Assembly (NCBI GenBank): GCA_016196625.1
Contig: JACPXH010000017.1
Coordinates: forward strand, 1-52,776
Origin: Candidatus Parcubacteria bacterium
GTDB taxonomy: Bacteria > Patescibacteriota > Minisyncoccia > JACPXH01
Length of the DNA: 52,776 nucleotides
Reading direction: 5' to 3'
In this document: positions 5,136-43,801 of the stretch, one piece after another
Position numbering within the stretch: the stretch's first letter is position 1
Layout of the letters: each line of letters begins with the position of its first letter
Program-made: the position numbers and the translations under genes
The notes under the pieces: model-generated
What the model was told of the DNA's origin: nothing
Seen by the model: the letters and a program-made list of their open reading frames with translations, nothing else
Databases searched by the model: none

Positions 5136-5143
5136 AGTTGAGC

Positions 5144-23262: not shown

Positions 23263-23272
23263 CATATCACCC

Positions 23273-24016
23273 ATGGAACTTTCGATTGTCATTCCGGCAT
23301 ACAACGAGGAGAAACGGCTTCCCCGGACGCTCGAACGAATCTTCTCGTACCTCGGTACGCACTATCGCGGCGCGTATGAAGTGGTCGTGGTTGATGATGG
23401 AAGCCAGGATCGGACGAGCGAGGTGGTCGGGCAGCTTGCCGCATCTTACCCGCAGCTTCGACTCATCACCTTCGAGCGTAACCGAGGACGGGGCGTGGTG
23501 GTGCGAGATGGCATCTTTGCCGCGCGGGGCGAGTTTGTGTTGGAGGCAGATGCGGACGGGAGTGTTGGCGAAGAGGCGATCGTGCGCTTCCTTGATTACT
23601 TCCGAACGCACCGCGACGTAGATATGCTTACCGGCAGCCGCACCATTCAAGGCGCAAGAGTCATCGTCCCCCAGCCGTGGCTGCGGGTCGCACTCGGTTG
23701 GGCGTTTATCTTGCTTACACGGATCATGTTTGGTTGGCCTCTCTATGACAGGATCAACGGATTCAAGATGTTTCCGCGTAACGTTGCTCGCGATATCTTT
23801 AGCTTCACGCGAGAGTCGAGTTTCTTTGGCGAGGCCGAGGTCGTGTACGTGGCCGAGCGGCGCGGTTGGCGGGTCAAGGAATTGCCGGTCGACTGGTCAG
23901 ACAACCGCGATTCGCGTATCCGGCCCCTGCGTGAGTCGTGGCGGTCGTTCTGGGGGATGTTTCGGGTTTTGTGGCGCGATTGGCATGGGGTGTATACGTC
24001 TAATCAAACAAGATGA
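23273..24016 (+). CDS. GT2 glycosyltransferase (dolichyl/polyprenyl-phosphate beta-glucosyltransferase-like)
   Basis: MELSIVIPAYNEEKRLPRTLE, VVVVDDGSQDRT and EADADGS motifs. Start ATG 23273; ORF-track start 23237 is a TTG overlapping the upstream gene. Confidence 0.8.
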   Translation: MELSIVIPAYNEEKRLPRTLERIFSYLGTHYRGAYEVVVVDDGSQDRTSEVVGQLAASYPQLRLITFERNRGRGVVVRDGIFAARGEFVLEADADGSVGEEAIVRFLDYFRTHRDVDMLTGSRTIQGARVIVPQPWLRVALGWAFILLTRIMFGWPLYDRINGFKMFPRNVARDIFSFTRESSFFGEAEVVYVAERRGWRVKELPVDWSDNRDSRIRPLRESWRSFWGMFRVLWRDWHGVYTSNQTR

Positions 24017-24815: not shown

Positions 24816-25559
24816 ATGCAAGATCAAGCTTACGACAAGACCTACGAGCTAGAGAACCGATACTGGTGGCACGTGGGACGCCGTTACGTCTTCCGAAAAG
24901 TGCTCGAGCGGTTCTTTTCGCCCCGGACCGGGGCGAAAATCGTGGACATTGGCTGCGGCACCGGTGGGAACTTCCCCATGCTGGGTGGTTTCGGGACGGT
25001 GCTTGGCCTCGACATTTCCGAGAAGGCTCTCGCCTTCTGTCGCCAGAAGGGGTTCACGAACGTGGCGCTCATGCGGGGAGTATACGATACGGGGCTCGAC
25101 GTCGGGTCTGTGGATTTGGTTACCATGTTTGACGTGCTCGAACATTTTGATGATGATGTGCGGGCGCTTGCGGAGATCAACCGGATCTTGAAGCCGGGTG
25201 GCTATACGCTGATAAGCGTGCCGGCTTTCAAGACGCTCTGGAGTGAATTGGACGAAGCGTTGTACCACCGCCGGCGTTACAAACGACGGGAGCTTGAGAT
25301 GAGGTTGGAAAAAACTGGCTTTGAAATTGTCAAGTCGAGCTACCTGTTCTTTTTCGTTTTCCCACTGGTATTTATGTACCGGGTCGTGGGTCAATTTCAA
25401 GAGCGGCGTTCCTATCCTCAATTTACGTACGTGGAGTTCCCGAAATTCATTGGTGCGTTCCTGGCGTGGCTTTCTAAGGTGGAAGCGAGCATTCTTGGTG
25501 CGGGCGGCCGGTTGCCCGTTGGTTCAACGGTGGTATGCTTCGCGCGCAAGAAGATATGA
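24816..25559 (+). CDS. Class I SAM-dependent methyltransferase (paralog of 48298..49035)
   Basis: From ATG 24816: YELENRYWWHVGRR, IVDIGCGTGGN, FDVLEHFDDD, LKPGGYTLISVP. Hydrophobic C-terminal tail. Confidence 0.75.
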   Translation: MQDQAYDKTYELENRYWWHVGRRYVFRKVLERFFSPRTGAKIVDIGCGTGGNFPMLGGFGTVLGLDISEKALAFCRQKGFTNVALMRGVYDTGLDVGSVDLVTMFDVLEHFDDDVRALAEINRILKPGGYTLISVPAFKTLWSELDEALYHRRRYKRRELEMRLEKTGFEIVKSSYLFFFVFPLVFMYRVVGQFQERRSYPQFTYVEFPKFIGAFLAWLSKVEASILGAGGRLPVGSTVVCFARKKI

Positions 25560-26284
25560 GTAATCGACCAGAGCTTTCGGTGGTGGCATTGTGCTATCGA
25601 GCCGAAGACCTTGCTCGCGAGTTTGTGGCGCAAATTGTCCGTGAGCTCGAGGAAGCAAAAATCGATTACGAACTAGTGTTGGTCGCCAACTACTGGCCCG
25701 GCTCGAACGACCGCACCCCCGAGATTGTGAAAACCATCGCGGCTGCAAACCCGAGGTGCCGCGTGGTGGCAAAAGCCAAAGAGGGAATGATGGGGTGGGA
25801 TATGCGCTCCGGGCTTGATGAGGCCACGGGCGAGCACATTTGTGTCATTGACGGGGACGGTCAGATGCCGTCTTCGGATATCGTCAAAGTCTACCGGTTG
25901 CTGCAGCTTGGGCATTACGATCTCGTGAAAACCTTCCGAGCGCAGCGCTTCGACGGGCCATATCGGCGAGTCATCTCAGCGGTGTACAACTGGTTTTTCA
26001 GGTTGCTATTTAGGCCGAAAGCTAAGTTTCGCGATGTCAACTCGAAACCGAAAGTTATGACTCGCGTTGCCTTCGATCGGATGCGCCTCGAATCGAGCGA
26101 TTGGTTCACCGATGCGGAGATCATGATCGAAGCGCTACGGATAAACCTGAAGATCGGGGAAGTTTCGACAACTTTCTTCAAAAATGAACGGCGGGCATCG
26201 TTCGTGTCACCGTCGGCCATCCTCGAATTCTTGCGCAACCTTCTCTACTACCGGTTCAAGCGCCGACCGTCGGATCATGGGTAG
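25556..26284 (+). CDS. GT2 glycosyltransferase (polyprenyl-phosphate sugar synthase-like, CsbB/GtrB-type core)
   Basis: ATGA overlap with the upstream stop. LSVVALCYRAED, VIDGDGQ (DxD), RVISAVYNWFFRLLF. No C-terminal TM helices are visible. Confidence 0.75.
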   Translation: MSNRPELSVVALCYRAEDLAREFVAQIVRELEEAKIDYELVLVANYWPGSNDRTPEIVKTIAAANPRCRVVAKAKEGMMGWDMRSGLDEATGEHICVIDGDGQMPSSDIVKVYRLLQLGHYDLVKTFRAQRFDGPYRRVISAVYNWFFRLLFRPKAKFRDVNSKPKVMTRVAFDRMRLESSDWFTDAEIMIEALRINLKIGEVSTTFFKNERRASFVSPSAILEFLRNLLYYRFKRRPSDHG

Positions 26285-28676
26285 GGAGGCACGCATCCGG
26301 ATCGCGGTTGCGGCCGCACTGGTGTTACCGGCACTCATCGTTTTCTGGCCGGTTCTTTCGGGCAGAGCAGGATTCGCTGACGGCGACGTGTTCCTCCAGT
26401 ATTACCCGCTCTACGAGGTGTTCCGTGAAGCTCTGCTCGCCGGTCAGTCGTGGCTGTGGGTGTCTGGTGTGATGACTGGTTTCCCGCTTGCCGCGAGCGT
26501 GGTGGGCGGCCTGCTCTCACCCGTGAACCTGGCGCTCTTTCGGTTCTTCGACGTGCTTAACGCGTACCACGTCGTGACAGTTGCAAACATCCTCGCGGCG
26601 GGAGCGGCGACGTACTGGCTTAGCCGTCGGCTCGGGCTTGGTCGAGCTGCGGCTCTCATCGCCGGCGTCACTCTGCCGTGGTCAGTGGCGTATGTTTCGT
26701 TTGCCTCCAATATCACCGTTTCGAACGGCTACTGGCTTTTGCTCGTGCTGTTTTCGGCGATCCTTATTATGCACGAGGCGGAGTCGCGCGGTCGGTTTTT
26801 GCTCGGGTTTGGCGTGGCCACGGTCGCGGCGGCACTAGGGTTTTTCGGCGCACACCCGCAGTGGGTAGCGCAGGGGATCGCGGTCGGGTTCGCGTGGGTA
26901 CTATACCTTTCGTGGCAGCGGCGATCTGTGCGTACCGCTCTCTGGTTTATCGGAGCGGTTGCGCTTGGCGCAGCGCTGGCACTTCCGCAGCTGCTGTTTT
27001 CTGTTCGATACCTGCCGTTCTCGTCGCGCGAAAGCGGATTAAACCTGGCCGAAGCGTTCAGTGGCGGATTCACGCTGCTCGATCCGATCGCGTATATTGT
27101 CCCGGGGCTCAATGTGCCGTATCTCATGGCTAACCCGGGAATCGCGTATGTGGGCGCGCTGCCATTCTTTTTATTCTTGTTTTCGTTTGCAGCGCCAACA
27201 TCTCCACCGTTGCGGTTCTTCCGTTGGGTCTTTGCTCTTACGTTTCTTGCATTGTTCCAATACTCGCCGGTATTTCTAGCGTTGAACGCTATCCCGGGCC
27301 TCAGTTTCTTTCGTGGGCCGAGCCGTTGGCTCTACGTTTCTAACGTAGCACTTGCCGTACTCGCCGCGTACGGGTTCGCATTCCTTGTCTCGCCAGAAGG
27401 CCGCGACCGATTGAGTAGATCGATCCGGTGGATCATGCGGGGAGTAATGGTGTTTGGGATAGCATTTCTCTTCTGGAACGTTGCGAGTATCGCTTTTAAA
27501 CTTGAGGGGCGCACGTACGACGCGCTCACGCGGTACTTCGACACCACGATCTATCCACGCACGACGAAACTTCCCCTTGAGCACTACCACGCCGTGATTC
27601 GCCGCGCTGTCGAGGCGGTCTGGGACGGAACGACGTTTCCTCACGTTGTGTTCTCGGTTTCGTTCCTGTCTCTCATTGCCGCCGCAACGCTCCTAGCGTG
27701 GTGGGTGCGACGGGAACGTTCGCCGCGGGGATTCGGCATGCTTGCGGTTTCGTTGGTCCTCGCAAACCTTATTCCGCTCGCCACAGCAAAACTTTCGTTC
27801 GTGCCCTCGGAGATTATCCGCCAGACGCCGGCCATGGTGCGTAGAGTCCGTGTAGATGCCGGCGCCGAACCCTTCCGCGTCTGGACGTTTTTTCCAGGAG
27901 TAACCGTCTTTACGAAGCTCGATACCCCATTCGGCTACGAACCCGCGGAAAATGTTAGTTTTCAACGCGAGCTCATCGCACCCAATATCGGGCTCTCATA
28001 CGGCGTGGATACGCTCGATAACTACGATAACTTTATGGATCGGCGTAGTTCTCGCGTGCTCGGCCATCTCGGGAGCGATCGGGCAACCTACGGCGAGTTG
28101 CTCGTTCGGGAGAAGCTCTCTCTCGAAGAGAAGCGTGCGCTGTTCCTCGAACGACTTCCCATACTCTCCCGATTCAATGTGCGGTACATCGTAAGCGCCT
28201 TCCCCCTAGAACACCCTCAACTCCGCGCAGTCAGCCGCATGCGCGCCACGCGTCATGAGATCGAACTCATGCTCTACGAAAACTCGGCAGTTTGGCCGCG
28301 CTACTACCTCGCGGGGCGCGTTCGGACTGTTCCGCCTGCGGATGAAAAGATAGAATGGGAACAATTTCTCCGGCACGTCGCGGCAGATCCCGATGGCGAT
28401 CTCATCGCCTGCGAGCAGTGTTCTGCGGTTCAGGTGGGGAAGCGTGAGGCAGTACCGGTTGTTTCATCGAGCGGTTCCACCTATACTTTTGTGGTGGAGA
28501 CGGATGCGCCGCGCTGGTTCGTGTTTGGGCAAAATATGCTCCCTGGCTGGCGTGTTACGATTGACGGCAAGTTAGTCCCCACATACCGCGCAAACTTTCT
28601 AAATCAGGCTGTTGTTGTGCCCGTTGGCCGGCACGAAATAATGTTCGAGTTTAATCCATTTCGTTTTGAACTTTGA
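26277..28676 (+). CDS. YfhO-like GT-C membrane glycosyltransferase
   Basis: 799 aa from ATG 26277, overlapping the GT2 stop by 8 nt. N-terminal FADGDVFLQYYPLYEVFREALLAGQSWLWVSGVMTGFPL. Many TM segments. C-terminal beta-rich end GWRVTIDGKLVPTYRANFLNQAVVVPVGRHEIMFEF, as in YfhO-type proteins. Confidence 0.6.
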   Translation: MGREARIRIAVAAALVLPALIVFWPVLSGRAGFADGDVFLQYYPLYEVFREALLAGQSWLWVSGVMTGFPLAASVVGGLLSPVNLALFRFFDVLNAYHVVTVANILAAGAATYWLSRRLGLGRAAALIAGVTLPWSVAYVSFASNITVSNGYWLLLVLFSAILIMHEAESRGRFLLGFGVATVAAALGFFGAHPQWVAQGIAVGFAWVLYLSWQRRSVRTALWFIGAVALGAALALPQLLFSVRYLPFSSRESGLNLAEAFSGGFTLLDPIAYIVPGLNVPYLMANPGIAYVGALPFFLFLFSFAAPTSPPLRFFRWVFALTFLALFQYSPVFLALNAIPGLSFFRGPSRWLYVSNVALAVLAAYGFAFLVSPEGRDRLSRSIRWIMRGVMVFGIAFLFWNVASIAFKLEGRTYDALTRYFDTTIYPRTTKLPLEHYHAVIRRAVEAVWDGTTFPHVVFSVSFLSLIAAATLLAWWVRRERSPRGFGMLAVSLVLANLIPLATAKLSFVPSEIIRQTPAMVRRVRVDAGAEPFRVWTFFPGVTVFTKLDTPFGYEPAENVSFQRELIAPNIGLSYGVDTLDNYDNFMDRRSSRVLGHLGSDRATYGELLVREKLSLEEKRALFLERLPILSRFNVRYIVSAFPLEHPQLRAVSRMRATRHEIELMLYENSAVWPRYYLAGRVRTVPPADEKIEWEQFLRHVAADPDGDLIACEQCSAVQVGKREAVPVVSSSGSTYTFVVETDAPRWFVFGQNMLPGWRVTIDGKLVPTYRANFLNQAVVVPVGRHEIMFEFNPFRFEL

Positions 28677-28829: not shown

Positions 28830-30908
28830 ATGAACCGTATCCGGTTATTCTTTGTTGACGTGTTCTCCCAGCCGCGCTTCGGTTGGTTCCTTGCCGTGAG
28901 TGCGGTCGCGTATTTCGTGGGCGTTCGTCTCGGGCAGGACGTCGTGTACCGAATGTCGCTCCGGTCATTCCCGGATCTCTTCGCAAGCCACGGCAACCTC
29001 ATTCAGCCAGAGCCCCTGGAAGCGCCGCTGTACCTGGCGGGCTATCTTCTTATTCCCCTTGGTGCCCTCGGTCTTTGGTTTATCGCTAGCCAGTGGCGCC
29101 GGCTGATCGCGGTGGTTGCGACCATTGGGGGAGTCGTCATGTTGTGGTTCGTATATCCTGCACTGTGGCATGTGGTGGGGCGCGTTGGTGAGATGGGTGT
29201 CATGGCGGTCCAGTACGCTGCGACGCACGACCTCGTCCAGGTACTCTGGCTCGCAACAACGAAACGTATCGTGGTTACGGGTGCTATACTCGGCATCTCG
29301 ACGGTCGCGTTTGTTTGGCTCTTTGCCTCTGGGCGTCGGCCGTTCCTGGCGTGGATCCGGCAGCACCGCGACGCGCTCTCGTCTCGCTGGGCGCAGACTC
29401 TGTTTCTACTCGCCGTCGCCATCGTCGTCTTCCACCCGAATTTTCCCTTTGATCCGCACCATTACAATTATTTTCTCGGGCCGGTGAATGACATTCTTCA
29501 CGGCAAGCCGATTCTTTATGAAACGTACGCCCTCTACGGGCTCCTCGATGTGTATGCGCTTGCGGCGATCTTCCGATGGCTCTTGCCGTTGAGCTACCCG
29601 GCGGCCGTCCTCGTGGTGACAGGGCTCTTCGCCGCATTCTTCGCGGGGATGTATTTCTTTATTCGCCGTTGGCTCGGCTCGCACCTGATGGCGGTCATCG
29701 GCGTCTCGGCGCTCGTGGCGACACTCTATCTATTCCAAACAAGCCCGACGCGTTCATCGCTGTTTTTTCCGGCGATGAGCCCGCTCCGTTACGGTTGGTA
29801 CCTCCCAATTCTTTTCCTCATTCATCGTTACGGCGTCACGCGGAGCGCCAAAGCATGGTGGGGGGCGATTGTGCTCGCGGCGATCGCGCTCTTTTGGACG
29901 ATTGACGCTGGCGCATACGTTGCCGCTGCGACGCTCATCACGCTTGGCATCGCGGAGGTTTTGCAGAGAGCGCCGGCACGCGGCGCTGTTCTCCGGACGG
30001 CGGCAGCGGTTGCGTTCCGGCTTGGGGCAGTATTCGTTCTTGTTGTCGGCGCGGTCGTAGCGACCATCACCGCGGCGAACGCGGCCGTCTTCGGCGCACT
30101 GCCCGACTGGAGCCTTTTTACAAAGGAGTTCCTAGATTTTGTAGGCGGCGTGGTGATGAACCCTCTGCCGGCGGTGGGGGTGTTCGTGTTCCTCGTACTT
30201 GGATACGTCGTCGCGTGGCTTGCGGTCGCCGACGAGGCGCGCCGCGGCCGAAATCCTGATCTCGCGCTCGTCTTCCTCCTTGCGTATGGCGCCTTCCAGT
30301 TCCTCTACTATATCGGCAACTCGTCCTGGCAGACTCTCTATCTTGTCACGGGGCCGTTCTTCCTCATCTTACTTTATGTGTTTTACCGTGCTACCCTGGC
30401 AGACCCCTTCGGTCCGCCGTGGGCCGAGCGGTTGCTTGTCGCGTCAGGATACGCCGTGGCGGTCTTCGCCGCGCTACTTCTTGTGGCAAAGCTCCCCGTT
30501 GAGTTTGCGGGTCGCAACTATGCCCAGATTAGCGAGAGCTTTCAGAGTTACGGCGTCCGGGAACTTTCGGTGGCAGATGAGTATACCGATGGGCGAGAGA
30601 TTCGCCGGGCGTATCCGAATTTTGAGCGGCTAGCTGTCATTTCGACCCGCGACACTCCACTCCTTATTGCGGCCGGCCGGCCGAATGCCTTCGCGACGTA
30701 CTACCTGCGCGATGTGCTTTTTAAATCGCAGGTACGCGGGTTTATCGCCCAGGCACGCCGCGACCTGACGCCGGTTATCTTTGTCGGTACGGGGAGCCGG
30801 CGAAACGACCAAGTTGAACTTTTCCTCAAAGGCGTGCGCGAACGCTACGCGCGTGCGCAATCCCTACGGACGGTTGACATGTACGTTCTGCGAGACGGAT
30901 CTTTCTGA
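28830..30908 (+). CDS. Large polytopic membrane protein, unassigned family (paralog 1 of 3)
   Basis: 692 aa from ATG 28830, chosen by alignment with paralog 2. Conserved blocks shared with 32059..34011 and 34100..35872: VLWLATTKR, HPNFPFDPHHYNYFLGPVNDILHGKPILYETYALYGLLDVY, LPVEFAGRNY, and C-terminal NDQVE...LRTVDMYVLR. Confidence 0.7.
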   Translation: MNRIRLFFVDVFSQPRFGWFLAVSAVAYFVGVRLGQDVVYRMSLRSFPDLFASHGNLIQPEPLEAPLYLAGYLLIPLGALGLWFIASQWRRLIAVVATIGGVVMLWFVYPALWHVVGRVGEMGVMAVQYAATHDLVQVLWLATTKRIVVTGAILGISTVAFVWLFASGRRPFLAWIRQHRDALSSRWAQTLFLLAVAIVVFHPNFPFDPHHYNYFLGPVNDILHGKPILYETYALYGLLDVYALAAIFRWLLPLSYPAAVLVVTGLFAAFFAGMYFFIRRWLGSHLMAVIGVSALVATLYLFQTSPTRSSLFFPAMSPLRYGWYLPILFLIHRYGVTRSAKAWWGAIVLAAIALFWTIDAGAYVAAATLITLGIAEVLQRAPARGAVLRTAAAVAFRLGAVFVLVVGAVVATITAANAAVFGALPDWSLFTKEFLDFVGGVVMNPLPAVGVFVFLVLGYVVAWLAVADEARRGRNPDLALVFLLAYGAFQFLYYIGNSSWQTLYLVTGPFFLILLYVFYRATLADPFGPPWAERLLVASGYAVAVFAALLLVAKLPVEFAGRNYAQISESFQSYGVRELSVADEYTDGREIRRAYPNFERLAVISTRDTPLLIAAGRPNAFATYYLRDVLFKSQVRGFIAQARRDLTPVIFVGTGSRRNDQVELFLKGVRERYARAQSLRTVDMYVLRDGSF

Positions 30909-30972: not shown

Positions 30973-31596
30973 TCATGGCCGAACGATTTTTATGTACAAA
31001 AAATGCCAAAGTTTTATAAACTTATTCGGACTAGGAAAAATTCTCATTTCGGTAACTGGATAATTTTTAAAAACTTTTTCTGTTTGTTCTCGGGTCCGGA
31101 TATGTTTGCCCTGGTCAAACTTGGTCAAAAGCTTGGTGGTCCACCGGTCATCAGGCCTGTGGATGATATCGAAGAAGTGCAGTGCCCCGCCGGGTTTCAG
31201 AGCCACTAAAAGTTTGTCGAGGATACTCTTAAATTCTTCATCGGAGAGATGGTGACTGGTGCTGGCAAATAGCGCGTGATCAAAAAAATTACGCTTGTAC
31301 TCTTGTCGTAAAACATCAACGCATGCAAAGTGGACATGAGGATAATTTTTGAATTTCTGTTTGGCTGCCGTTATCGCTTCGCCGTCAATGTCCACGCCGT
31401 AATATTCAAAATTCAAAAATCCCGGAGTGGTGTTGCCGTAGGAACAACCAAAGTCGAGCAAGGTTCCGGATTTTCCCTCAAACACCGATGTATACAGGGC
31501 TACCTTGTACTGGTTTGCCCCGAGGAAATTGTGTACAAAATTGAGGACAAAAGGGATATTAATGATCTTCTTCATGATGCGATTTTTCAGGGCCAT
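30973..31596 (-). CDS. Class I SAM-dependent methyltransferase (low-G+C insert)
   Basis: 207 aa. LLDFGCSYGNTTP (motif I), YYGVDIDGEA, LKPGGALHFFD. Markedly AT-rich codon usage. Confidence 0.75.
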   Translation of the reverse strand: MALKNRIMKKIINIPFVLNFVHNFLGANQYKVALYTSVFEGKSGTLLDFGCSYGNTTPGFLNFEYYGVDIDGEAITAAKQKFKNYPHVHFACVDVLRQEYKRNFFDHALFASTSHHLSDEEFKSILDKLLVALKPGGALHFFDIIHRPDDRWTTKLLTKFDQGKHIRTREQTEKVFKNYPVTEMRIFPSPNKFIKLWHFLYIKIVRP

Positions 31597-31602
31597 CTGG
31601 AA

Positions 31603-31631
31603 ATTATACCCTAGTTAATCGCATTATGCAA
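31603..31631 (-). promoter_or_regulatory. Sigma70-like promoter giving a leaderless methyltransferase mRNA
   Basis: Minus strand: TTGCAT (31631-31626), 17-nt spacer, consensus TATAAT (31608-31603), then 6 nt (TTCCAG) to ATG at 31596. No room for an RBS. Confidence 0.5.
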
Positions 31632-32058
31632 ACGCGGCAAGCCAACACGGTAAAGAAAATGTCTTGAAACCAACCAAACTGTTACTTAACGTAACTGCCC
31701 CAAGGGCGTCGTTGCCAGAAAACGGCTAATCGTGATCTTCCCCGGCCATCAGATGTATGAGGCCGCGGATTTTTGTGGCCGCTATCTCGAAGCCCTCCCA
31801 CCCATTTCTTCGCTCGGCGCAAGTTCCCGAACGCGCACTTCCGCTGCCCACATACCGGGGACCAAAGCGATTTTTCACGGAGGATTGGGGTAGTTATTCC
31901 AGCCAGGTAATGAAGCGATGTTTTTAGCATTGACAGGTAGAGTTCTTGGAGTACGCTGGGAATATTCTCAAGAGTTGCCTGCCATGATCAAATCGAGAGT
32001 GGAAACCTCTAGCGGCCGTCCGGCTCAGGCAACCTGTGCGACACTTTTGCATGCAGCA

Positions 32059-34011
32059 ATGAAAAACTTTTTGGACTATATAAAAAATCTTGATTTCAGA
32101 AAATATCTGGTTTTTTTGATTCCTGCCGTTTTGATTTATTTCTTCGCCTCCAATGTTTTCCAGAGCCGCCTGACGATTACCAACTTTGATATGCTTGATG
32201 CGTACCCCGGGTACCCGATTCTGCCTGAACCGTATGAGATTCCTTTGTATTTATTAAGTTTTATCGCGGTTCCATTGTTGACGCTGGTTTTTTACCGCTT
32301 GTGGAGTTATCCAGCTATACGGTTTGCTGTTGGCCTCTTGGTCGGCGCGGGTGCAGTGGCCCTGTTGGTAAAGATTGCCCAGATGCACTGGCCGAGTGTC
32401 GCTACAGCTTTCGACTATTTGGCGACGCGCCGCACCAGCCACGTCCTATGGCTGGTGACCACGAAACGCCTGTACGCGGTGAGGCTGGCAATGGCCACCA
32501 GCGTGGCGGCCTTGATCTTTTTTTATTGGAAGCCGTTGCAATTCCGTTGGCTGACCAGCCGCGAAAATCCTCGGCTGAAAACATTACTCTTCCTGCTGCT
32601 GGTGATGCTCGGGGTCGTTGTGTTTGATCCGAATTTTACTTCGCAGGAGGGTTTCACGAATTTCGTGCTGAGCCCGGCGCATGAAATGCTGAACGGCAAA
32701 CCCCTGCTGTATGATACTACCTCGGTGTATGGCGTGTTGAGCGTCTACCTGACTGCGTTTTTGATCAAATTTTTTCTTCCGCTGTCCTATAAATCCATGT
32801 CCTTGATTATCATGGTAGCGTATTTTGGTTTTTACTTCTTGCTGTATAAAGCGCTGAAAATTTGGACGCAATCGTCTGTCTTTTCGCTGTTGGGCACATG
32901 GCTTGCGGTCGTGGTCGGGTATTTTTTGCTCGTGTCTCCCTATATAGCAGCCACGAGTTATATCGGTCAAACCGCATACCGGCAAGGTTTTTACCTAATT
33001 ATATTTTATTTTTTGGTGCGCTGGTGGCAAACACATTCCCGAGCGACTCGGGAGCTGATCTTTCTTTTTTCTGCCCTTGGTTTGTTTTGGAATATCGATA
33101 CCGGTGTGTACATTGCGATTGCCACTTTTGCCTCGCTTGCCTATGTGCTGCTCACGGAAAGATCCACTCGTTCGGCACGCTCACCCGACAGTACTTTTCA
33201 GAAATTTAAAAAAGTTTTTTCCCTCGGCGTGCATCAATTCCTTTATATTTTTGGGGTATTCGCCGTTATTTCTCTGGTCAACTATTTGATGTATCATTCG
33301 TGGCCCAACTGGCTGTTGGAGATTGCCGACATTTCCACGTTTAACACCGGGTACGGTAAAATTCTCATGCCTCAATTTGGCATTTTTGAAATCTACCTGT
33401 TTGTTTACTTGGGGTTTCTGGCGTGGATCGTCTGGAAATTCGTGAGAAAAGAGGTCGTGCCGTTGCCCGTGGTATTCCTGACGACCTATGGAATTTTTTC
33501 CTTTATTTATTATGTCGGCAACTCTGCCTGGAGTTATCTCAACTTTATTTCTATTCCCATGCTCATGTTGCTGCTTTACTTCTTTTATCAATTTTTCCGC
33601 GAACAATCTGATTTTCTTCCGCGGCGTTTGATGGCAGCCGGATTGGGCGCATTGCTGTTTTTTGCTTCGATCGTAACGATGGTCAAAATCCCGGTGGTGT
33701 TTGCGAATCGGAACTATGCCGACATCAGCTTGACCAGTATTGATGCCGCAGACGAGCCGTTGTACCAGGACGCAATCTATTTACGGGGACACTTTCCCGA
33801 CACGCGCTTGGCGGTTTTGCACGAAACCGACGGCAAGCTCCTCGTGATGGCTGATAAAATCAACTATTTTTACCTGCAGTCCGGACACCAGCGGCTGTAT
33901 AGCTTATATGATAATTTTCTCATGATTTATCGGCGCCATACCCAAGGTATTAGCCTATTTTGTTGTCATTCGTTTTTTCCAGGATTGGCTGTATCGGAGT
34001 CTCGGCGTTGA
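32059..34011 (+). CDS. Large polytopic membrane protein, unassigned family (paralog 2; divergent, C-terminally truncated)
   Basis: 650 aa from ATG 32059; alternative starts at 31984 and 31918. Aligns with paralogs 1 and 3 but has DPNFTSQEGFTNFVLSPAHEMLNGKPLLYDT in place of the DPHHY(N/H)YFLG block. Lacks the terminal NDQVE...TVD(V/M)Y module. Confidence 0.65.
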   Translation: MKNFLDYIKNLDFRKYLVFLIPAVLIYFFASNVFQSRLTITNFDMLDAYPGYPILPEPYEIPLYLLSFIAVPLLTLVFYRLWSYPAIRFAVGLLVGAGAVALLVKIAQMHWPSVATAFDYLATRRTSHVLWLVTTKRLYAVRLAMATSVAALIFFYWKPLQFRWLTSRENPRLKTLLFLLLVMLGVVVFDPNFTSQEGFTNFVLSPAHEMLNGKPLLYDTTSVYGVLSVYLTAFLIKFFLPLSYKSMSLIIMVAYFGFYFLLYKALKIWTQSSVFSLLGTWLAVVVGYFLLVSPYIAATSYIGQTAYRQGFYLIIFYFLVRWWQTHSRATRELIFLFSALGLFWNIDTGVYIAIATFASLAYVLLTERSTRSARSPDSTFQKFKKVFSLGVHQFLYIFGVFAVISLVNYLMYHSWPNWLLEIADISTFNTGYGKILMPQFGIFEIYLFVYLGFLAWIVWKFVRKEVVPLPVVFLTTYGIFSFIYYVGNSAWSYLNFISIPMLMLLLYFFYQFFREQSDFLPRRLMAAGLGALLFFASIVTMVKIPVVFANRNYADISLTSIDAADEPLYQDAIYLRGHFPDTRLAVLHETDGKLLVMADKINYFYLQSGHQRLYSLYDNFLMIYRRHTQGISLFCCHSFFPGLAVSESRR

Positions 34012-34099
34012 CCAGCGGCCCGGCGGGCTGTTTGAGAGCTTCGGACCGTTCTTCCGCGGCGAGCCGTATGAAATTTTTCTTTACCTGCTCGGTTATTTC
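33908..34099 (+). other. Interrupted 5' segment of paralog 3 (ATG 33908, in-frame TGA 33923-33925, then 58 homologous codons without a start codon)
   Basis: In the frame of 34100..35872: ATG ATA ATT TTC TCA TGA, then FIGAIPKVLAYFVVIRFFQDWLYRSL...EPYEIFLYLLGYFVVP. This aligns with the N-terminal helix/loop of paralogs 1 and 2. It overlaps the tail of 32059..34011 in another frame. Confidence 0.5.
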
Positions 34100-35872
34100 G
34101 TGGTTCCGATGGCGGCATACGGTTTACTCCCCCTGATGAGAAAACTGCGGCGGCATTTTTTTATTCCTTTGGGTGCGGCGGCTGCGCTCGTTGCGGCGTC
34201 GTGGCTTTCGCAGAAGCAATATTTTACGCGGGTGGCAGACCTTGTGTCTGCGCCAGGCATCGCGCACCCGCTGTCACTGATTTCCACCCAGCGCATGGTT
34301 GTGGCCCACCTGGCACTGATTCTAGCGGTCGTGGCTGCAGCAGTTTATTACTGTTTCGACCGGAGCGATTTGGGTGTGCTCTACCGCGGGAGCGTCGAAC
34401 GGTTTTTCAATAAATTTTGGCCGTTCGGACTCATACTTTTAGCGTTTTTACTGTACCACCCTGGGTTACCCCTCGACCCGCATCATTATCATTATTTTCT
34501 GGGTGCGGTAAATGATATTTATCAGGGGAAGGGATTGCTGTATGAAACCTCCCACCTCTACGGGCTTTTTGACGTGTATTTTTTGGCCCTGCTGTTCAAA
34601 GTCATTCCGTTTTCTTACCCGATGTTTGCGGCGGTGATCACCGCGGCTTATTTTTTGTTTTTTTGTGGCATTTTTGTTTTCCTGCGTCGATGGCTAAACT
34701 CCTATACACTCTCGACTTTGGGGGTGAGTATTATCGTCCCGATGCTTTATTTCATTCGCACCAGCGATACTCAATCAGCCTTGTTCTTGCCCGCCTTGAG
34801 TCCATTGCGGTGGGGGTTGTACCTGCCCGTCCTGTTTTCTGTTTTGGCGTACGCCAGAAGTGGTAAGAGGAAATTTGCACATTTGGCCATGGTAATTTCT
34901 GCTGCTGCCGTTTTTTGGAATTTTGACACAGGCATATTTTTGAGCTTGGCGACCTTGGCAACTTTCATGTACCAGGAGCTTAATCCCGGCTGGAATATCC
35001 GGGAGGCCGGCAAGATTCTACTCCATTTTTTCCTTTATGGCCTATCGCTTTTTGCCCTCACTAGTCTCATCAACCGGGGGGTCTATGGATCCTGGCCGCA
35101 CTGGTCACTGTTTTTGCGCGAGAGCAAAGACTTCGTCTTGGGTGCCGCGATGCACCCGCTCCCGCCGTTAGGCTTGTATCAGATCATTTTCTATACTTAT
35201 CTGCTCTCCTTGGCCGTGATTTTTTATAAGCTTGTCGGTCGAAAGACCGTTGATCTGCCTTTGGTTTTTCTTTCCGTCTACGGAGTTTTTTCTATGGTTC
35301 ATTACATTGGCGAATCCACCGGGCAGATTTTTTCCGCCGTGACCGCGCCTTTTGTTTTGATCATTTTGTACGCTGTAGATAACTTTTGGAAAGAAAATTA
35401 TCAGCCTGCGTATGAGCGATTGGTGGCCACGGGTTTGGCCTGCTTGGTTTTTATGGCAGCGTTTTTAGCAATTTTTAAATTGCCGGTAGAATTCAGCACC
35501 CGGCACTATACCCAGGCCGGAGAAAGTCTGTTCAACGTAAGGGCCGAAGAGCTTGATACGTATTATGATGCGAAATATTTACAGGCACATTATCAGCAAA
35601 AGCGCTTGCCGATAATTTCCCTCAACGACACAAAACTTTTGACATACTCAAAAAAAGCTAATTATTTTGATTTCTACTATATTTTTACGATCTATTTTCG
35701 TTCCCAGATGCAGAAATATATTGACCAGGCCAGAAGCGAAAAACCGGCTATGCTCATAGTCGGTAGGAATAACTATCGAAACGACCAGGTGGAGTACTTC
35801 TCTGCTGGCGTGCAGGACTTATATGCTGTCAGTGAGTCGCTGAAAACCGTGGATGTTTATACCTTGCGTTAG
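34100..35872 (+). CDS. Large polytopic membrane protein, unassigned family (paralog 3; N-terminus possibly disrupted)
   Basis: 590 aa from GTG 34100, the first usable start. HPGLPLDPHHYHYFLGAVNDIYQGKGLLYETSHLYGLFDVY, LPVEFSTRHY, NDQVEYFSAGVQDLYAVSESLKTVDVYTLR match paralog 1 at about 45-50% identity in the segments I aligned by eye. Confidence 0.7.
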   Translation: MVPMAAYGLLPLMRKLRRHFFIPLGAAAALVAASWLSQKQYFTRVADLVSAPGIAHPLSLISTQRMVVAHLALILAVVAAAVYYCFDRSDLGVLYRGSVERFFNKFWPFGLILLAFLLYHPGLPLDPHHYHYFLGAVNDIYQGKGLLYETSHLYGLFDVYFLALLFKVIPFSYPMFAAVITAAYFLFFCGIFVFLRRWLNSYTLSTLGVSIIVPMLYFIRTSDTQSALFLPALSPLRWGLYLPVLFSVLAYARSGKRKFAHLAMVISAAAVFWNFDTGIFLSLATLATFMYQELNPGWNIREAGKILLHFFLYGLSLFALTSLINRGVYGSWPHWSLFLRESKDFVLGAAMHPLPPLGLYQIIFYTYLLSLAVIFYKLVGRKTVDLPLVFLSVYGVFSMVHYIGESTGQIFSAVTAPFVLIILYAVDNFWKENYQPAYERLVATGLACLVFMAAFLAIFKLPVEFSTRHYTQAGESLFNVRAEELDTYYDAKYLQAHYQQKRLPIISLNDTKLLTYSKKANYFDFYYIFTIYFRSQMQKYIDQARSEKPAMLIVGRNNYRNDQVEYFSAGVQDLYAVSESLKTVDVYTLR

Positions 35873-36039
35873 CGGTTTTTGCCGGCTGATGGCATCCAGA
35901 CGGTGTATCACATAAGGACAGACGCCGAGGCTAGATTCTCGGATGGGATGAGGTTAATGGTTGCGCGCCGGCGTTTCACCTCGGCCGCTACCAATTTCGC
36001 TACCTTAGGATCAGTTTTGTTAATGTGGCGAAGTTGCAT

Positions 36040-38456: not shown

Positions 38457-39353
38457 ATGCAGAAACAAAAAATACTGATCACCGGAGGGTCGGGGATGCT
38501 TGGTTCTGCATTCACGGAGTTCCTTCGTGGGGAAAACTATAGTGTTAGGCCTCTCGCGCATACCGATCTCGACGTGCGAGACCGGGCGCGGGTGTTCGAG
38601 GAAGCGGCATTCGCGCCGGATGTGGTGATCCATACCGCAGGGATTGTCAACGCTGACTACTGCGAAGAACACAGAGACGAGTGTTTCGCCAGTCACGTCG
38701 GCGGCACCGAAAACATTATTGAACTGTGCCGCAGAACCGGTGCTCAGCTTCTCTACCCCCAAACATTTCTCATTTTTGACGGCACCGAAGTACCCGCCAC
38801 CGAAGAGACTTCTCCTCGTCCGCTTTCAGTGTACGGCGAGGCAAAGTGGCGCGCAGAGCAAATGGTGCGTGAGCGTCTGCCGGAGGCACTTATTGTGCGT
38901 ATGGGGGGGTTCTTCGGCGGCTACGAAAAAGACAAGAATTTCGTAGGCAAGTTTGCGTATCTCCTCAAGAAAAGTGTTGCGCAAGGCCAGAAATCTCTGC
39001 AAGGCATCGAGCGCGTATGGCAGCCGACATTTACGGAAGAACTCGCGCGCAATTGCACGCAGCTTATAGAACAGCACGCCACGGGCGTTTACCATATGGC
39101 AAGTCATGGGTCGGCCTCTTTCTTTGATGTCGCCCGGGCCATGGTTGAAATTTTTGGTCTTGAGAAACGCATCGAAATCGAAAAAGTTCCTTCTCATTAC
39201 TTTGAAGAAAAATGCCGGCGGCCGGAAAACGGCACGATGGAGAACAAATGCCTTCAAGCAGAAGGCCGTGACCAGATGTCCCATTGGCGGCTAGCGCTGG
39301 AGGAGTATCTCCGGCGTCCTTACTTTCAGAATTTGTTTGCCGGACTCGTATGA
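38457..39353 (+). CDS. RmlD-like NDP-4-keto-sugar reductase (dTDP-4-dehydrorhamnose reductase family)
   Basis: 298 aa. KILITGGSGMLGSAF, DVVIHTAG, YGEAKWRAEQMV (YxxxK). Size and layout match RmlD-type reductases. Confidence 0.75.
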   Translation: MQKQKILITGGSGMLGSAFTEFLRGENYSVRPLAHTDLDVRDRARVFEEAAFAPDVVIHTAGIVNADYCEEHRDECFASHVGGTENIIELCRRTGAQLLYPQTFLIFDGTEVPATEETSPRPLSVYGEAKWRAEQMVRERLPEALIVRMGGFFGGYEKDKNFVGKFAYLLKKSVAQGQKSLQGIERVWQPTFTEELARNCTQLIEQHATGVYHMASHGSASFFDVARAMVEIFGLEKRIEIEKVPSHYFEEKCRRPENGTMENKCLQAEGRDQMSHWRLALEEYLRRPYFQNLFAGLV

Positions 39354-40393
39354 CGAAGTATTTATTTTTGGAGCCATTTGAGAAAGAAGGTCTTTCTCTG
39401 AAAAATCGTCTGGTCATGACGGCCATGACCCGGGAGTTTGCCGATGAAAACCATTGCCCCACAGACGAAATGCGCGCGTATTATGAGCGGCGTGCCGCTC
39501 ACGGCATAGGCCTCATTCTTTCCGAGGGCACCATTGTTCATCCGAGCGGGGACGGGTATCCTACGGTGCCGTATATGTATACGGACGAGCACGTAGCAGA
39601 GTGGAGCAAAGTCGTTGCCGCGGTGCAGGCGCACGGCGCAAAAATGTTCTGCCAGCTCTGGCACTGTGGTCGCATCTCGCACCCGGATTATTTGAATGGT
39701 GCTCTGCCGGTGTCGTCATCAGCAATCGCGCCAGAGGGCAATCATAGCCGGCTGAAAAAACCTTTTGTTACGCCGCGGGCGCTCGAAACGCAAGAAATTC
39801 CGGAGATTGTAGAGATGTTTGTCCGAGCTGCCCAACAGGCGCTGAGCGCCGGATTTGACGGCGTGGAAATACACGCTGGCCACGGGTATCTCATCGATCA
39901 ATTCTTTGACAGCCGCGTCAATCACCGTACCGATCAATATGGCGGCTCGGTTGAAAATCGGTGCCGGTTTGCGCTCATGATACTAAAAAGAGTTCTCGAA
40001 GTTGCAGGGCCCACGCGAACAAGCGCGCGCATTTCCCCGTCGCGCGAGATGAATGGCCTCTACGAGTGGCCTGATCTTGAAGCCATGCTGGATTATTTAA
40101 TTCCTGAACTAGATGCGGCGGGTGTGCGGATATTGGACGTGAGCTGTGCTCGGAGCGATTACGCACAGACCTCGGGCAGGATGGTGCGGCTTATCAGGCC
40201 TAGGTGGCCGCACATACTCATGGCCGGCGCAAGTTTGTCTCCCGAAACGGCCGACAAAGAAATCAGGGATGGCGTGATTGATCTCGTTACCTATGGCCGA
40301 TATATTCTGGCCAACCCCGATTTCATCGAGAAAATCACGCGCGGGGAACATTTGATCCCGTACGATAGCGAGATGTTGAAGACGATGTATTAG
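39350..40393 (+). CDS. Old Yellow Enzyme family NAD(P)H:flavin oxidoreductase
   Basis: ATGA overlap with the upstream stop. LKNRLVMTAMTR, QLWHCGR, GFDGVEIHAGHGYLIDQFFDSRVNHRTDQYGGSVENRCRF: canonical OYE/NemA-type blocks. Confidence 0.8.
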   Translation: MTKYLFLEPFEKEGLSLKNRLVMTAMTREFADENHCPTDEMRAYYERRAAHGIGLILSEGTIVHPSGDGYPTVPYMYTDEHVAEWSKVVAAVQAHGAKMFCQLWHCGRISHPDYLNGALPVSSSAIAPEGNHSRLKKPFVTPRALETQEIPEIVEMFVRAAQQALSAGFDGVEIHAGHGYLIDQFFDSRVNHRTDQYGGSVENRCRFALMILKRVLEVAGPTRTSARISPSREMNGLYEWPDLEAMLDYLIPELDAAGVRILDVSCARSDYAQTSGRMVRLIRPRWPHILMAGASLSPETADKEIRDGVIDLVTYGRYILANPDFIEKITRGEHLIPYDSEMLKTMY

Positions 40394-40478: not shown

Positions 40479-42104
40479 CTAGTCAACCGGAGCGAGCATT
40501 GGCTCCGGTAGCAAGTCTGAGTTATACACCACTTGGTCGTAGAGGTGGTGACGTGTGGTGGTGCTCAAGGTACGAAGCGTGAGGTCGTCTTGGGCGAAGA
40601 AGCGCTTCGCGAGCTTCTCGCCGCGGGGGAGCTGTGCAAAGTATGGCCATAGCGCCTCGAAGGTTTCGGCTCGATGGGCGCTCAATTCCCCAAGCGCTGC
40701 CCGCAACGCCGCTTTGCGCGTAGTGCGCTCGACGGTTTCCCCAAGTGCGGCCAGATGTTCGATGGTCATCCGTCCGAGGGCAGCGAAGCTGAAGTCGCCC
40801 GTCCGCAGATACCGCTCCGCCAGCTCATCTCCGCGCGGCACATGGCCAAAGAAGTTGAAGAGCGCCTGGAGCACCACGGTTTGATCGCGGTAGCGCTCGT
40901 TCTCTTCGTGGCTGAATGGTCGGCGCGCAGGGTTTGGCTTGGTGGGGTCGGTTTGGTAGCGGTCGTTCCAGTAGAACGTGAGCACGCTCCGATCAAAGAA
41001 GGTCTCGGAGAGGTCGTCGTTATTGCCTCCGTAGTAGCCCCACCGGACCGCAAGCTCTCCCAGCGTAGTGCCGCGGTAAGGGGCGAAGATGGAACTCCAC
41101 GCCATATCGGGCCTGATCGCGACGTTGAGCCGCAGTGTCGCAAGGTTCAAGTCGAGATCGCTCGTCGGGAGCGCCATGATCTGTTCAGTGCGCAGGCGCA
41201 ACCCCGCCGCCTTAATCTTGGCGCATCCCTCGACGATCTCATCGTTCGTCATGCCGTCGCGGTCCAGGATGTGCTTGCGCACCCACGGGTCGGCCGATTC
41301 GATGGCGGTCGTAAGCCCGCAGCAACCTCCTTCCTTGAACAGCTTGAGCCGGCGCGGGTCGCGCGTGAGCTCGAGTCGGATTTGGGCGTGCCACGGAATT
41401 CGAACCCGATCTCGGTACTGGCGGACGAACTCTTCCAGCCAGGGGATGTTGAAGCCGAACACGTCGTCCTGAAAGAAGATGAGACGGGTCGGCCAGCGCC
41501 GGCGGATTTCTTCGAGCTCGGCGATGACGGCTTCAACCGGTCGGGCAACCAACTTGAAGCCGCCATAGAGCTGTAAGAACTGCACGTTGTAGCAGTACGT
41601 GCAGCCCCATGGGCAACCTAGCGCCGTGATCGAGTTTTTGATGGGGTTGTCTCGGTGCCGCGGGTATTCGTCGTAGAAGGTCGCTCGGTCCGGACAGGGG
41701 AATCCCTCCCGAAGGAGTTTCTCGTCGAAGAATACCCCAGTGGATGCCGTCCCTCCCAAGATGTGCCGGAACCCCGTGAACCCCTCCCCCCGGACTACGT
41801 GCCGGGCGTATTGGGCGGCGTCTTCGGCAAAGTAGGTGGCGTGCGGTCCGCCCATGGCCGTCGTAATACCCATGGCGTTGAGGCGCTTCATCGCTTCGTA
41901 GACGGGTTTGTGCGCGCCGCTATAGACGTTGAAGCCAACCAGGTCCGGCCGGAATTCTTCAACGCGTTCAAACAGCGGCCGGAAGTCAAAATCTCTGACC
42001 AGCACGATGCGGGTCTGATGGCCGAGCTTTTTGGCGAGCCCGGCCAGGTAGATGAGTCCTAGGGGTTCGATGATCGAGTAGGCGGCCGCGAGCAATATGC
42101 GCAT
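40479..42104 (-). CDS. B12-binding-domain radical SAM enzyme (class B rSAM)
   Basis: 541 aa. N-terminal Rossmann-like B12-binding-type domain (MRILLAAAYSIIEPLGLIYLAG...DLVGFNVYSG). Radical SAM motif CPWGCTYC (CxxxCxxC). Long C-terminal extension. Confidence 0.8.
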   Translation of the reverse strand: MRILLAAAYSIIEPLGLIYLAGLAKKLGHQTRIVLVRDFDFRPLFERVEEFRPDLVGFNVYSGAHKPVYEAMKRLNAMGITTAMGGPHATYFAEDAAQYARHVVRGEGFTGFRHILGGTASTGVFFDEKLLREGFPCPDRATFYDEYPRHRDNPIKNSITALGCPWGCTYCYNVQFLQLYGGFKLVARPVEAVIAELEEIRRRWPTRLIFFQDDVFGFNIPWLEEFVRQYRDRVRIPWHAQIRLELTRDPRRLKLFKEGGCCGLTTAIESADPWVRKHILDRDGMTNDEIVEGCAKIKAAGLRLRTEQIMALPTSDLDLNLATLRLNVAIRPDMAWSSIFAPYRGTTLGELAVRWGYYGGNNDDLSETFFDRSVLTFYWNDRYQTDPTKPNPARRPFSHEENERYRDQTVVLQALFNFFGHVPRGDELAERYLRTGDFSFAALGRMTIEHLAALGETVERTTRKAALRAALGELSAHRAETFEALWPYFAQLPRGEKLAKRFFAQDDLTLRTLSTTTRHHLYDQVVYNSDLLPEPMLAPVD

Positions 42105-42433
42105 GGCTCCTCCCCCAGAGGCGTTGTGTCAAGGTACCGTTGCTCTCACCATGTCAAGAGCACTCTAATTATAGCGTGTCCAGAGCATCTCTGTTTTCAC
42201 TCTGTGGATAACTTTTGATTCCTGGTGCTACTTTCTTTCGCTGGGCATCTCTACTTTTGTAGGGGCAGATCGCAAACTCTGCCGGGGTTTACCCCGTTGG
42301 AGATTTATATAGTACTGCAATGGGTTACGAACACATCTCGCGTCTTACGTTCATGCCACCAAGATCGTCTCGTTTCCCATCTCTAACGGGGTTTACAGGA
42401 ACTGCGCGGTCTTTTATGATAGGAGGCAATACG

Positions 42434-43801
42434 ATGCGTATTCTCGTGCTCAACCCCGCTATTTACGCGGGCAAAACAAATATCATGACGGTACGCGACC
42501 GTCAGCCGTTGGACATGGCGTATATTGCCGCACTCCTTCGTGCGGATCACGAGGTGCGATTGTTGGACGCGAACATTTTTGGGTACGACGTGGACCGCAC
42601 CCTTGAGGAGATCGAGGCGTTTCGCCCGGATGCTTTCGTGCTTACCTCGACGCCCGTCAACCGATGGGAATGCCCGAATTCGCACATTGATTCGGTGTAT
42701 GAATTGATCAACCGGGCCAGAATTGAAAACACGATTTTGACCGGCTCGCACGGGTCGGTGACGCCCGAGTGGATGCTGCGAAAATGCAACGTGAAGTATG
42801 TGGTTCGTGGGGAACCGGAGATGATCGTGAAAAACCTTGTGGAGACGATTGCCGCGGGCGGCGACCCCAAGACCGTCAAGGGGATTTCGTTTCGAGAAGG
42901 TGAAGGGTTCCGCCACACCGAAGACGCCCCACGCGTGGAAAATCTCGACGCGATGCCAATGCCGGCATACGATCTTTTGCCGATGGAGCGGTACCGCTAC
43001 TCGTTCAGCGATCTCCCGCAACCCTTTTCAATTATGTTGACCAGCCGCGGCTGCCCCTACCACTGCACGTTCTGCCTCAAGGTCATGTCGAAAGACAAAT
43101 TTATTTGGCGTTCGACCAAATCCGTCATTGATGAGATTCAGTATCTGCAGCAGAATTTCGGCGTGCGATCGGTTTACTTTCAAGACTGGGAGTTTGTGAT
43201 CAATAAACCCCGCGTCCACGAACTGTGCGATGCTCTCATTCGTGAGGGGATCAAGGTCCGGTGGGGGTGCAACGTGCGCGCAAACGATTTTTTCTTCAAA
43301 GACCTGATCAAGAAAATGGCGGATGCCGGCTGCGTGCGGGTGAATATCGGGTTTGAGTCCGGCAGCCAGAAGGTTTTGAACTCGATAAAGAAAGCCATTC
43401 GGATTCAGGACTTGGAAACCGCGATCGAATTTACGCGCGCGCTCGGCATTAAACTCGGCATGTACGCCCTAATCAACGCGCCCGGGGAAACGAAAGAGAC
43501 GATTCGCGAGACTATGGCGTTTTTGGCCAAGCACCACATTGACGCGATGAATTTTAACCTTACAATTCCATATCTCGGCACCGAGATGCATGAACGCTTG
43601 AAACAACTCAAGCCGCAGGCCGAAGTCAATTGGGATAATGTGGAAGATTATGCGGGGTTGGTGGACACCGAGCTTTCGCCCGTGGCCGCGCGCTTCTGGC
43701 AGCGGCATGCCAAGTTTCAGATTCGGTTCGGTAAGCTCTATCCGTTGAACCCGGCCTTTTGGCAGCACGCCGTAAAAATGGTGGCGAAACGTTTAGCGTA
43801 G
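42434..43801 (+). CDS. B12-binding-domain radical SAM enzyme (class B rSAM)
   Basis: 455 aa from ATG 42434, with AGGAGG 7 nt upstream. MRILVLNPAIYAG...AFVLTSTP N-terminal domain. CPYHCTFC (CxxxCxxC). GCVRVNIGFESGSQKVL. Confidence 0.8.
   Translation: MRILVLNPAIYAGKTNIMTVRDRQPLDMAYIAALLRADHEVRLLDANIFGYDVDRTLEEIEAFRPDAFVLTSTPVNRWECPNSHIDSVYELINRARIENTILTGSHGSVTPEWMLRKCNVKYVVRGEPEMIVKNLVETIAAGGDPKTVKGISFREGEGFRHTEDAPRVENLDAMPMPAYDLLPMERYRYSFSDLPQPFSIMLTSRGCPYHCTFCLKVMSKDKFIWRSTKSVIDEIQYLQQNFGVRSVYFQDWEFVINKPRVHELCDALIREGIKVRWGCNVRANDFFFKDLIKKMADAGCVRVNIGFESGSQKVLNSIKKAIRIQDLETAIEFTRALGIKLGMYALINAPGETKETIRETMAFLAKHHIDAMNFNLTIPYLGTEMHERLKQLKPQAEVNWDNVEDYAGLVDTELSPVAARFWQRHAKFQIRFGKLYPLNPAFWQHAVKMVAKRLA

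Follow-up and report, generated by a model that had tools for sequence, protein, structure and literature searches.

How has the boundary between two tandem genes come to look damaged, the first gene lacking its end and the second its beginning? This question is raised by contig JACPXH010000017.1 of a Candidatus Parcubacteria bacterium (assembly GCA_016196625.1), the whole 52,776-nucleotide (nt) stretch of which is called the window here. The window codes for three paralogous membrane proteins of ~650–700 amino acids (aa), mutually 30–40% identical, which we refer to as copies 1, 2 and 3; the boundary in question lies between copies 2 and 3. A first-pass annotation had recognised the three tandem paralogs and observed that the module conserved at the C-terminus of the family is missing from copy 2. 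It had also observed that sequence homologous to the family N-terminus lies upstream of GTG 34100, the first usable start of copy 3, and that this upstream stretch of the copy 3 frame (33926–34099) contains no ATG, GTG or TTG. All of this holds, and the codons to which it drew attention (ATG 33908, TGA 33923–33925, TGA 34009–34011 and GTG 34100) lie where it placed them. The explanation of how they came to be arranged in this way needed revision.

The copy 2–copy 3 junction lacks 208 nt present in related contigs

A search with an extended translation of copy 3 returned two orthologs: P0002, a full-length protein of 663 aa (87% identical), and P0003 (70% identical). For comparison we used three related contigs, namely those of these two orthologs (L001 and L002) and L015, located via its copy 2 ortholog, together with a more distant relative, L016. 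DNA alignment and blastn revealed a collinear arrangement of a methyltransferase gene, copy 2 and copy 3 in L001, L015, L002 and the window, with 78–90% nucleotide identity and a single discontinuity. At 33952|33953, exactly 208 nt are absent from the window, and the flanks match base for base up to this junction in the three relatives. Comparison with orthologous loci, the check proposed in the first-pass annotation, thus reveals intact relatives that each carry 208 nt extra. In L001, L002, L015 and L016 the orthologs of both genes are complete and overlap by four nucleotides (ATGA), the copy 2 orthologs in the relatives being 671–712 aa long. The features of the junction are as follows.

32059–33951, + strand: genuine coding part of copy 2, 631 codons from ATG 32059, orthologous to L001 1305–3174
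32059–34011, + strand: copy 2 open reading frame as now read, ending at TGA 34009–34011
33908–33925, + strand: ATG...TGA mini-frame of the first-pass annotation, made up of copy 2 codons (L YD NF LM I) read out of frame
33952–33953, + strand: deletion junction; the missing 208 nt correspond to L001 3175–3382, L015 2477–2684 and L002 6521–6728
33952–34011, + strand: aberrant tail of copy 2, 19 codons SLFCCHSFFPGLAVSESRR plus TGA, which are copy 3 N-terminal coding sequence in the wrong frame
33953–34099, + strand: orphan remnant of copy 3, 147 nt or 49 codons in the copy 3 frame, real coding sequence
34100–35872, + strand: the part of copy 3 that is still open, 590 codons from GTG 34100

The missing segment has two parts. 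The first encodes the last 48 residues of copy 2, IEQIETGKPEYIFITNKPNQLISDIERAIQQPYTKDQSLNTLHIYRRK, plus the stop codon, these residues being the homologous counterpart of the module conserved at the C-termini of copies 1 and 3; the second encodes the first 22 residues of copy 3 including its start codon, MKSFLEQLKNRDYYYSLVGATL. Each part holds a module conserved across the family, P..IF(I/V)...SL.T(L/V)(H/D).Y at the C-terminus of copy 2 and M..L...K..DYYYSL at the N-terminus of copy 3, and the intact form is therefore ancestral and the deletion in the window derived. Taken together, the sequence comparisons indicate that the junction is most probably the product of a single recent blunt deletion of 208 bp across two genes, a case of ordinary gene decay with no recoding signal. 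One such event would account for everything that had been remarked upon at this site. It would also strip away the ATGA stop/start overlap between the tandem paralogs, an arrangement that is classic for coupling by termination and reinitiation, and with it the presumed translational coupling of the two genes.

At the ends of the deletion we found no microhomology, direct or inverted repeat, insertion sequence (IS) element or homopolymer, the nearest repeats (of 7–9 nt) lying off the breakpoints. Because the breakpoints carry no repeats, we reject replication slippage and reversible phase variation. A promoter and terminator scan of 33600–34400 yielded nothing relevant on the + strand.

Wrong-frame readings of copy 2 and copy 3 codons around the junction

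With the junction fixed by alignment, several details of the first-pass annotation could be re-examined. Homology of copy 2 had been taken to end at ...KINYF, near 33.87 kilobases (kb), which set the breakpoint ~80 nt too far upstream; genuine copy 2 sequence, YLQSGHQRLYSLYDNFLMIYRRHTQGI, continues to 33951 and is conserved in L001, L015 and L002. Its unrelated appearance is due to a 10-residue insertion specific to copy 2, which copies 1 and 3 do not share. Of the ~45 codons described as unrelated before the TGA, only the final 19, SLFCCHSFFPGLAVSESRR, are indeed foreign. They arise because 208 is not a multiple of three, so that copy 2 runs on in the wrong frame until TGA 34009–34011. Likewise, the homologous coding sequence in front of GTG 34100 is real, but extends for 147 nt from 33953 (AYFVVIRFFQDW...) rather than for 174 nt. 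The residues FIGAIPKVL (33926–33952), which had been aligned with helix 1 of the family, are a chance out-of-frame reading of copy 2 codons. The same is true of TGA 33923–33925, which had been proposed to be a nonsense mutation interrupting copy 3: an identical TGA lies out of frame within the intact copy 2 of L001 and L015, and L015 also possesses an ATG equivalent to that at 33908. Thus, of the proposed combination of a deletion and a nonsense mutation, the deletion fusing the two genes is borne out by three collinear relatives, while the nonsense mutation falls away.

The first-pass annotation had also raised the possibility of programmed recoding, through read-through of TGA 33923–33925 or a +1 frameshift between 33953 and 34008, to give full-length or fused products. 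The copy 3 frame is indeed +1 relative to that of copy 2, and a run of six T residues (CGTTTTTTCC, about 33971–33980) lies in the region where the two frames overlap. Nevertheless, we regard recoding as highly improbable. TGA is the commonest stop codon, terminating 28 of the 43 window open reading frames (ORFs) of ≥250 codons, and this stop-codon usage also ruled out a reassignment of TGA (genetic code 4 or 25). The ATG–TGA mini-frame is out-of-frame copy 2 sequence that exists in intact relatives, the T6 run is ordinary coding sequence for RFFQDW in all relatives, and there is no sequence feature specific to the junction. Furthermore, the relatives encode two separate proteins, the arrangement is not conserved, and a fusion would lack the core of the copy 2 C-terminal domain together with half of copy 3 helix 1.

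Consequences for copy 2 and copy 3

A deletion of this kind would have distinct consequences for the two genes. Copy 2 is left without the last 48 residues of its orthologs and without its own stop codon. In terms of a structural model of P0002 (described below), what has gone is half of one helix and the final strand–helix–hairpin of a C-terminal alpha/beta domain (elements H607–620, E624–628, H635–644 and E648–662); this loss of a conserved domain core would be expected to cripple the protein.

In copy 3, the orphan remnant at 33953–34099 begins halfway through helix 1 and ends halfway through helix 2, and between the two it encodes the predicted first outside loop, in which E-P-Y-E is invariant. 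Its only candidate initiation codons are near-cognates (ATT 33968 and 34073; CTG 33989, 34028 and 34085). The starts available to copy 3 are GTG 34100, ATG 34109 and ATG 34136, the last of which was chosen by the gene caller (protein P0001, 578 aa); the first of them now comes 89 nt after the stop of the truncated copy 2. Recognisable Shine–Dalgarno (SD) sequences precede almost none of 24 inspected gene starts in the window, where initiation seems to depend little on SD; a check of the candidate copy 3 restarts gave no discrimination, since most window genes lack such a sequence. The remainder of copy 3 is 87% identical to intact P0002 and carries no further lesions.

Copy 3 would thus be either untranslated or made from one of these three codons, and any such product would lack helix 1, the first extracytoplasmic loop with its E-P-x-E motif, and most of helix 2. 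This N-terminus is normal for the family, because every full-length relative recovered in a profile hidden Markov model (HMM) search carries it: all start at profile position ≤17 or have 45–140 residues before the matched stretch, and none begins at the position equivalent to 34100. Because the lost loop is where glycosyltransferases (GTs) of the GT-C class carry their catalytic acid, a truncated copy 3 product should be catalytically dead. Copy 1 is intact, with its N-terminal helix, EPxE loop and C-terminal module all retained, and may buffer the loss of function.

An alternative that starts from the same deletion is that copy 3 is now expressed in truncated form from a new start, ATG 34136 or ATG 34109, without the helix 1–loop–helix 2 hairpin. 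In comparison with L001, L015 and L002, two changes in the window are specific to it: Leu to Met at 34109, and Thr to Met at 34136, the latter (ACC to ATG) requiring two substitutions. Close by, at ~34154–34180, copy 3 in the window bears compensated indels (net −2 and then −4 nt around a shared TATTCCTT) that are absent from the same three contigs, the compensated frameshift yielding HFFIPLGAAAAL in place of LPLVFLSLVAGAAI. On topological grounds, removal of a two-helix hairpin would preserve the membrane topology of the remainder, and MRKLRR would then supply a positive-inside N-terminus; in addition, the frame of 578–590 codons is intact and the gene caller selected ATG 34136. It is conceivable that the new ATG codons and the remodelled segment that follows them (the −2/−4 nt indels) have rescued copy 3 as a non-catalytic partner or scaffold for intact copy 1, but we think this improbable. 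Only two codons carry the argument, which was made after the fact; they lie where the family varies most (with a predicted local distance difference test score, pLDDT, of 68–70), and part of the differences are common to L015. Such a protein would also dispense with the invariant E-P-x-E loop, and no natural homolog begins there. Expression from a new start is thus improbable, although less so than recoding.

Selection on the two genes and the age of the probable deletion

Neither copy 2 nor copy 3 has a further stop or frameshift. Relative to L001, the ratio of nonsynonymous to synonymous substitution rates (dN/dS) is 0.22 for copy 3 and 0.23 for the orphan 147 nt. Codon changes were then counted by branch with L002 as outgroup. 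On the window branch, synonymous and nonsynonymous changes number 36:22 in copy 3 and 34:23 in copy 2; on the L001 branch the corresponding counts are similar in proportion, at 15:9 and 27:12. For copy 3 the counts depart strongly from what neutrality would predict (binomial p = 3e-10), and neither gene displays relaxed selection or secondary lesions following inactivation. In a positional test for relaxed selection near the deletion, several changes that had appeared specific to the window proved to be common to L015. The lack of further lesions and the purifying pattern together imply that the deletion is very recent in comparison with the ~12% divergence, or is an artefact, or that the remnants are still under selection.

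Under the second of these options, the organism would in reality possess the 208 nt and both genes in full, and the junction would stem from a fault in sequencing or assembly, or from the assembler having fixed a minority variant with the deletion. In its favour, both genes are otherwise flawless and purifying-looking on the window branch, and no independent contig with this junction was found. Set against this, the deletion ends have no repeat or shared k-mer to mislead an assembler, which disfavours repeat-driven mis-assembly; the flanking sequence of three relatives can be aligned right up to the junction, base for base; and a clean loss of 208 nt is atypical of homopolymer or indel error. 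On balance, we judge an artefact to be unlikely, albeit somewhat less so than a functional truncated copy 3.

A recent deletion remains the reading that we favour, and several points weigh against it. Exact look-ups of copy 2, of copy 3 with several starts and of P0001 recovered no other contig with the window proteins. Mis-assembly or a minority variant, though unlikely, is compatible with the assembled contigs analysed here. The missing signal of relaxed selection fits an artefact or a still-useful truncated copy 3 equally well as it fits a recent deletion. Finally, the Met codons at 34109 and 34136, together with the compensated indel pair, could mean that a new start has been adopted. Scans of metagenome contigs with the P0002 protein and with a 27-nt conserved DNA pattern from beside the junction gave no matches.

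The paralogs belong to a membrane protein family with a predicted GT-C fold

The consequences set out above depend upon what these proteins are. The family proteins represented by copies 2 and 3 are multi-pass membrane proteins of about 665–710 aa. None of 60 family members scanned had a sequence match in Pfam, NCBIfam or the PDB, and none matched the described GT-C Pfam families (PMT, PMT_2, STT3, ArnT-type); one member in NCBI is named 'hypothetical protein', from Candidatus Parcubacteria bacterium. An exhaustive HMM search (E ≤ 1e-3) returned 2120 representatives at 50% identity. The named genomic matches are mostly metagenome-assembled genomes of Patescibacteria, or the Candidate Phyla Radiation (CPR), including Saccharibacteria, Doudnabacteria, Parcubacteria and Roizmanbacteria, and the family usually occurs in tandem arrays of 2–3 copies.

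An AlphaFold2 model of P0002 generated from a 60-sequence alignment had a pLDDT of 93 and a predicted template modelling score (pTM) of 0.93; a first model from 8 sequences was poor (pLDDT 61.5) and was not used. When the model was compared with the PDB using Foldseek, the top 20 matches were all folds of the GT-C superfamily, with probabilities of 0.96–1.0 and template modelling scores (TM-scores) of 0.27–0.45. They include ArnT (the best, E = 3.6e-5), STT3, PglB, DPY19, Pmt4, ALG9, ALG6 and EmbB, as well as PIGU, a GT-C-like subunit of the glycosylphosphatidylinositol (GPI) transamidase. GT-C glycosyltransferases use lipid-linked sugar donors, ArnT, PglB/STT3 and PMT being examples.

The model comprises ~13–14 long helices, with helix 1 at residues 11–39 and helix 2 at 62–88. 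E59, P60 and E62, invariant in our alignment A3, lie in the loop between them. The charges that flank this loop (K/R at the N-terminus and RKLRR after helix 2) suggest that it faces the outside of the cell. The hallmark of GT-C enzymes is a set of 7–13 transmembrane helices with a small extracytoplasmic element after the first that carries a conserved catalytic acid, and in solved structures the proposed catalytic Asp follows the first transmembrane helix (PMC11127046). By analogy, the loop acids E59 and E62 may have a catalytic role. We therefore confidently predict, from the model, that the paralog family has a GT-C glycosyltransferase fold, making it a candidate new GT-C family. This assignment is tempered by the fact that it is of a predicted fold, with TM-scores, also given as 0.31–0.43, that are modest, and no sequence family match.

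Genomic setting of the paralogs

The three paralog genes sit in a large cluster for cell-surface glycan biosynthesis that takes up the whole window (Wzy_C-TPR, GT4s, GT2s, PMT_2, AsnB-like, methyltransferases, DegT, epimerases and GT9). The remaining features next to the junction are these.

28830–30908, + strand: copy 1, intact paralog of 692 aa from ATG 28830, its ORF open from 28680
30973–31596, − strand: class I S-adenosylmethionine (SAM) methyltransferase of 207 aa, between copies 1 and 2

The gene caller's start for copy 2 is ATG 31984 (protein P0010). The methyltransferase gene adjoins the copy 2/copy 3 pair likewise in L001, L015 and L002. Within 31000–36000 of the window lies a block of lower G+C content (46–51%, versus ~58% elsewhere), made up of the methyltransferase, copy 2 and copy 3. 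In L002 the same three-gene module has a different neighbourhood, lying between GT2, methyltransferase and NusA genes on one side and UPF0102 and RNase HII genes on the other. This suggests that the methyltransferase–copy 2–copy 3 module is a transferable or rearranged cassette.

An ORF of 830 aa directly upstream of copy 1 (26184–28676) was considered as a fourth paralog and ruled out (hhalign probability 0.3%); it has no Pfam or NCBIfam match. Two GT2 genes nearby (23237–24016 and 25535–26284) could provide for the synthesis of lipid-linked donors. Elsewhere in the cluster, further large membrane enzymes of glycan metabolism are encoded at 189–2495 and 12056–13696, namely a Wzy_C protein (O-antigen ligase/polymerase-like) with fused TPR repeats and a GT-C protein of the PMT_2 type, so that there are at least two kinds of GT-C-like enzymes at this locus. 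In a single ORF of 727 aa at 5138–7321, an NAD-dependent epimerase/dehydratase domain (GDP_Man_Dehyd/Epimerase) occupies the N-terminal part and a GT4 glycosyltransferase the C-terminal part; the product looks like a fused bifunctional enzyme. The cluster also includes a divergent pair of genes for B12-binding radical SAM proteins (40479–42104 on the − strand and 42320–43801 on the + strand), adjoined by an Oxidored_FMN gene (39284–40393), and this pair may carry out an unusual sugar modification.

Discussion

In itself the finding is of very little consequence: a variable surface-glycan locus has undergone a recent loss-of-function deletion, or its assembly is at fault, and neither recoding nor any other unusual mechanism need be invoked. 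It does bear on annotation, in that 32059–34011 and 33953–35872 should be recorded as disrupted genes and not as containing a protein of 578–590 aa. Of wider use than the deletion may be the family itself: since its fold is confidently predicted to be that of a GT-C glycosyltransferase, the model suggests, for a membrane protein that is common in the CPR, a function open to experiment.

How, then, does this locus compare with known systems? It most resembles the pseudogenes that arise through boundary deletions in variable surface-glycan loci (O-antigen, capsule and extracellular polysaccharide), where, as appears to be the case here, a single deletion puts a pair of neighbouring glycan genes out of action. 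The lower G+C content of the affected block (46–50%, versus ~58%), the presence of an intact paralog (copy 1) and the fact that secondary decay has not yet set in are further points of likeness. Unlike surface-glycan phase variation, the junction has no IS element, repeat or homopolymer at its ends, and so provides no reversible switch; and the host here is probably an uncultured CPR-type bacterium rather than a well-studied pathogen. Translationally coupled genes with ATGA overlaps have their counterpart in the four related contigs, whereas in the window it is the overlap itself that has been deleted. As for the proteins, the predicted multi-pass fold is that of GT-C enzymes such as ArnT (GT83), PglB-STT3 (GT66), PMT (GT39), DPY19, ALG6/ALG9 and EmbB, from which the family differs in having no detectable sequence similarity to Pfam, NCBIfam or PDB families. 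It shares with these enzymes a soluble C-terminal domain and, going by the model, may also share conserved acids in the first outside loop after helix 1; its own acidic motif, E-P-x-E, stands at the end of that loop and not, as a D-x-D or DE, at its start.

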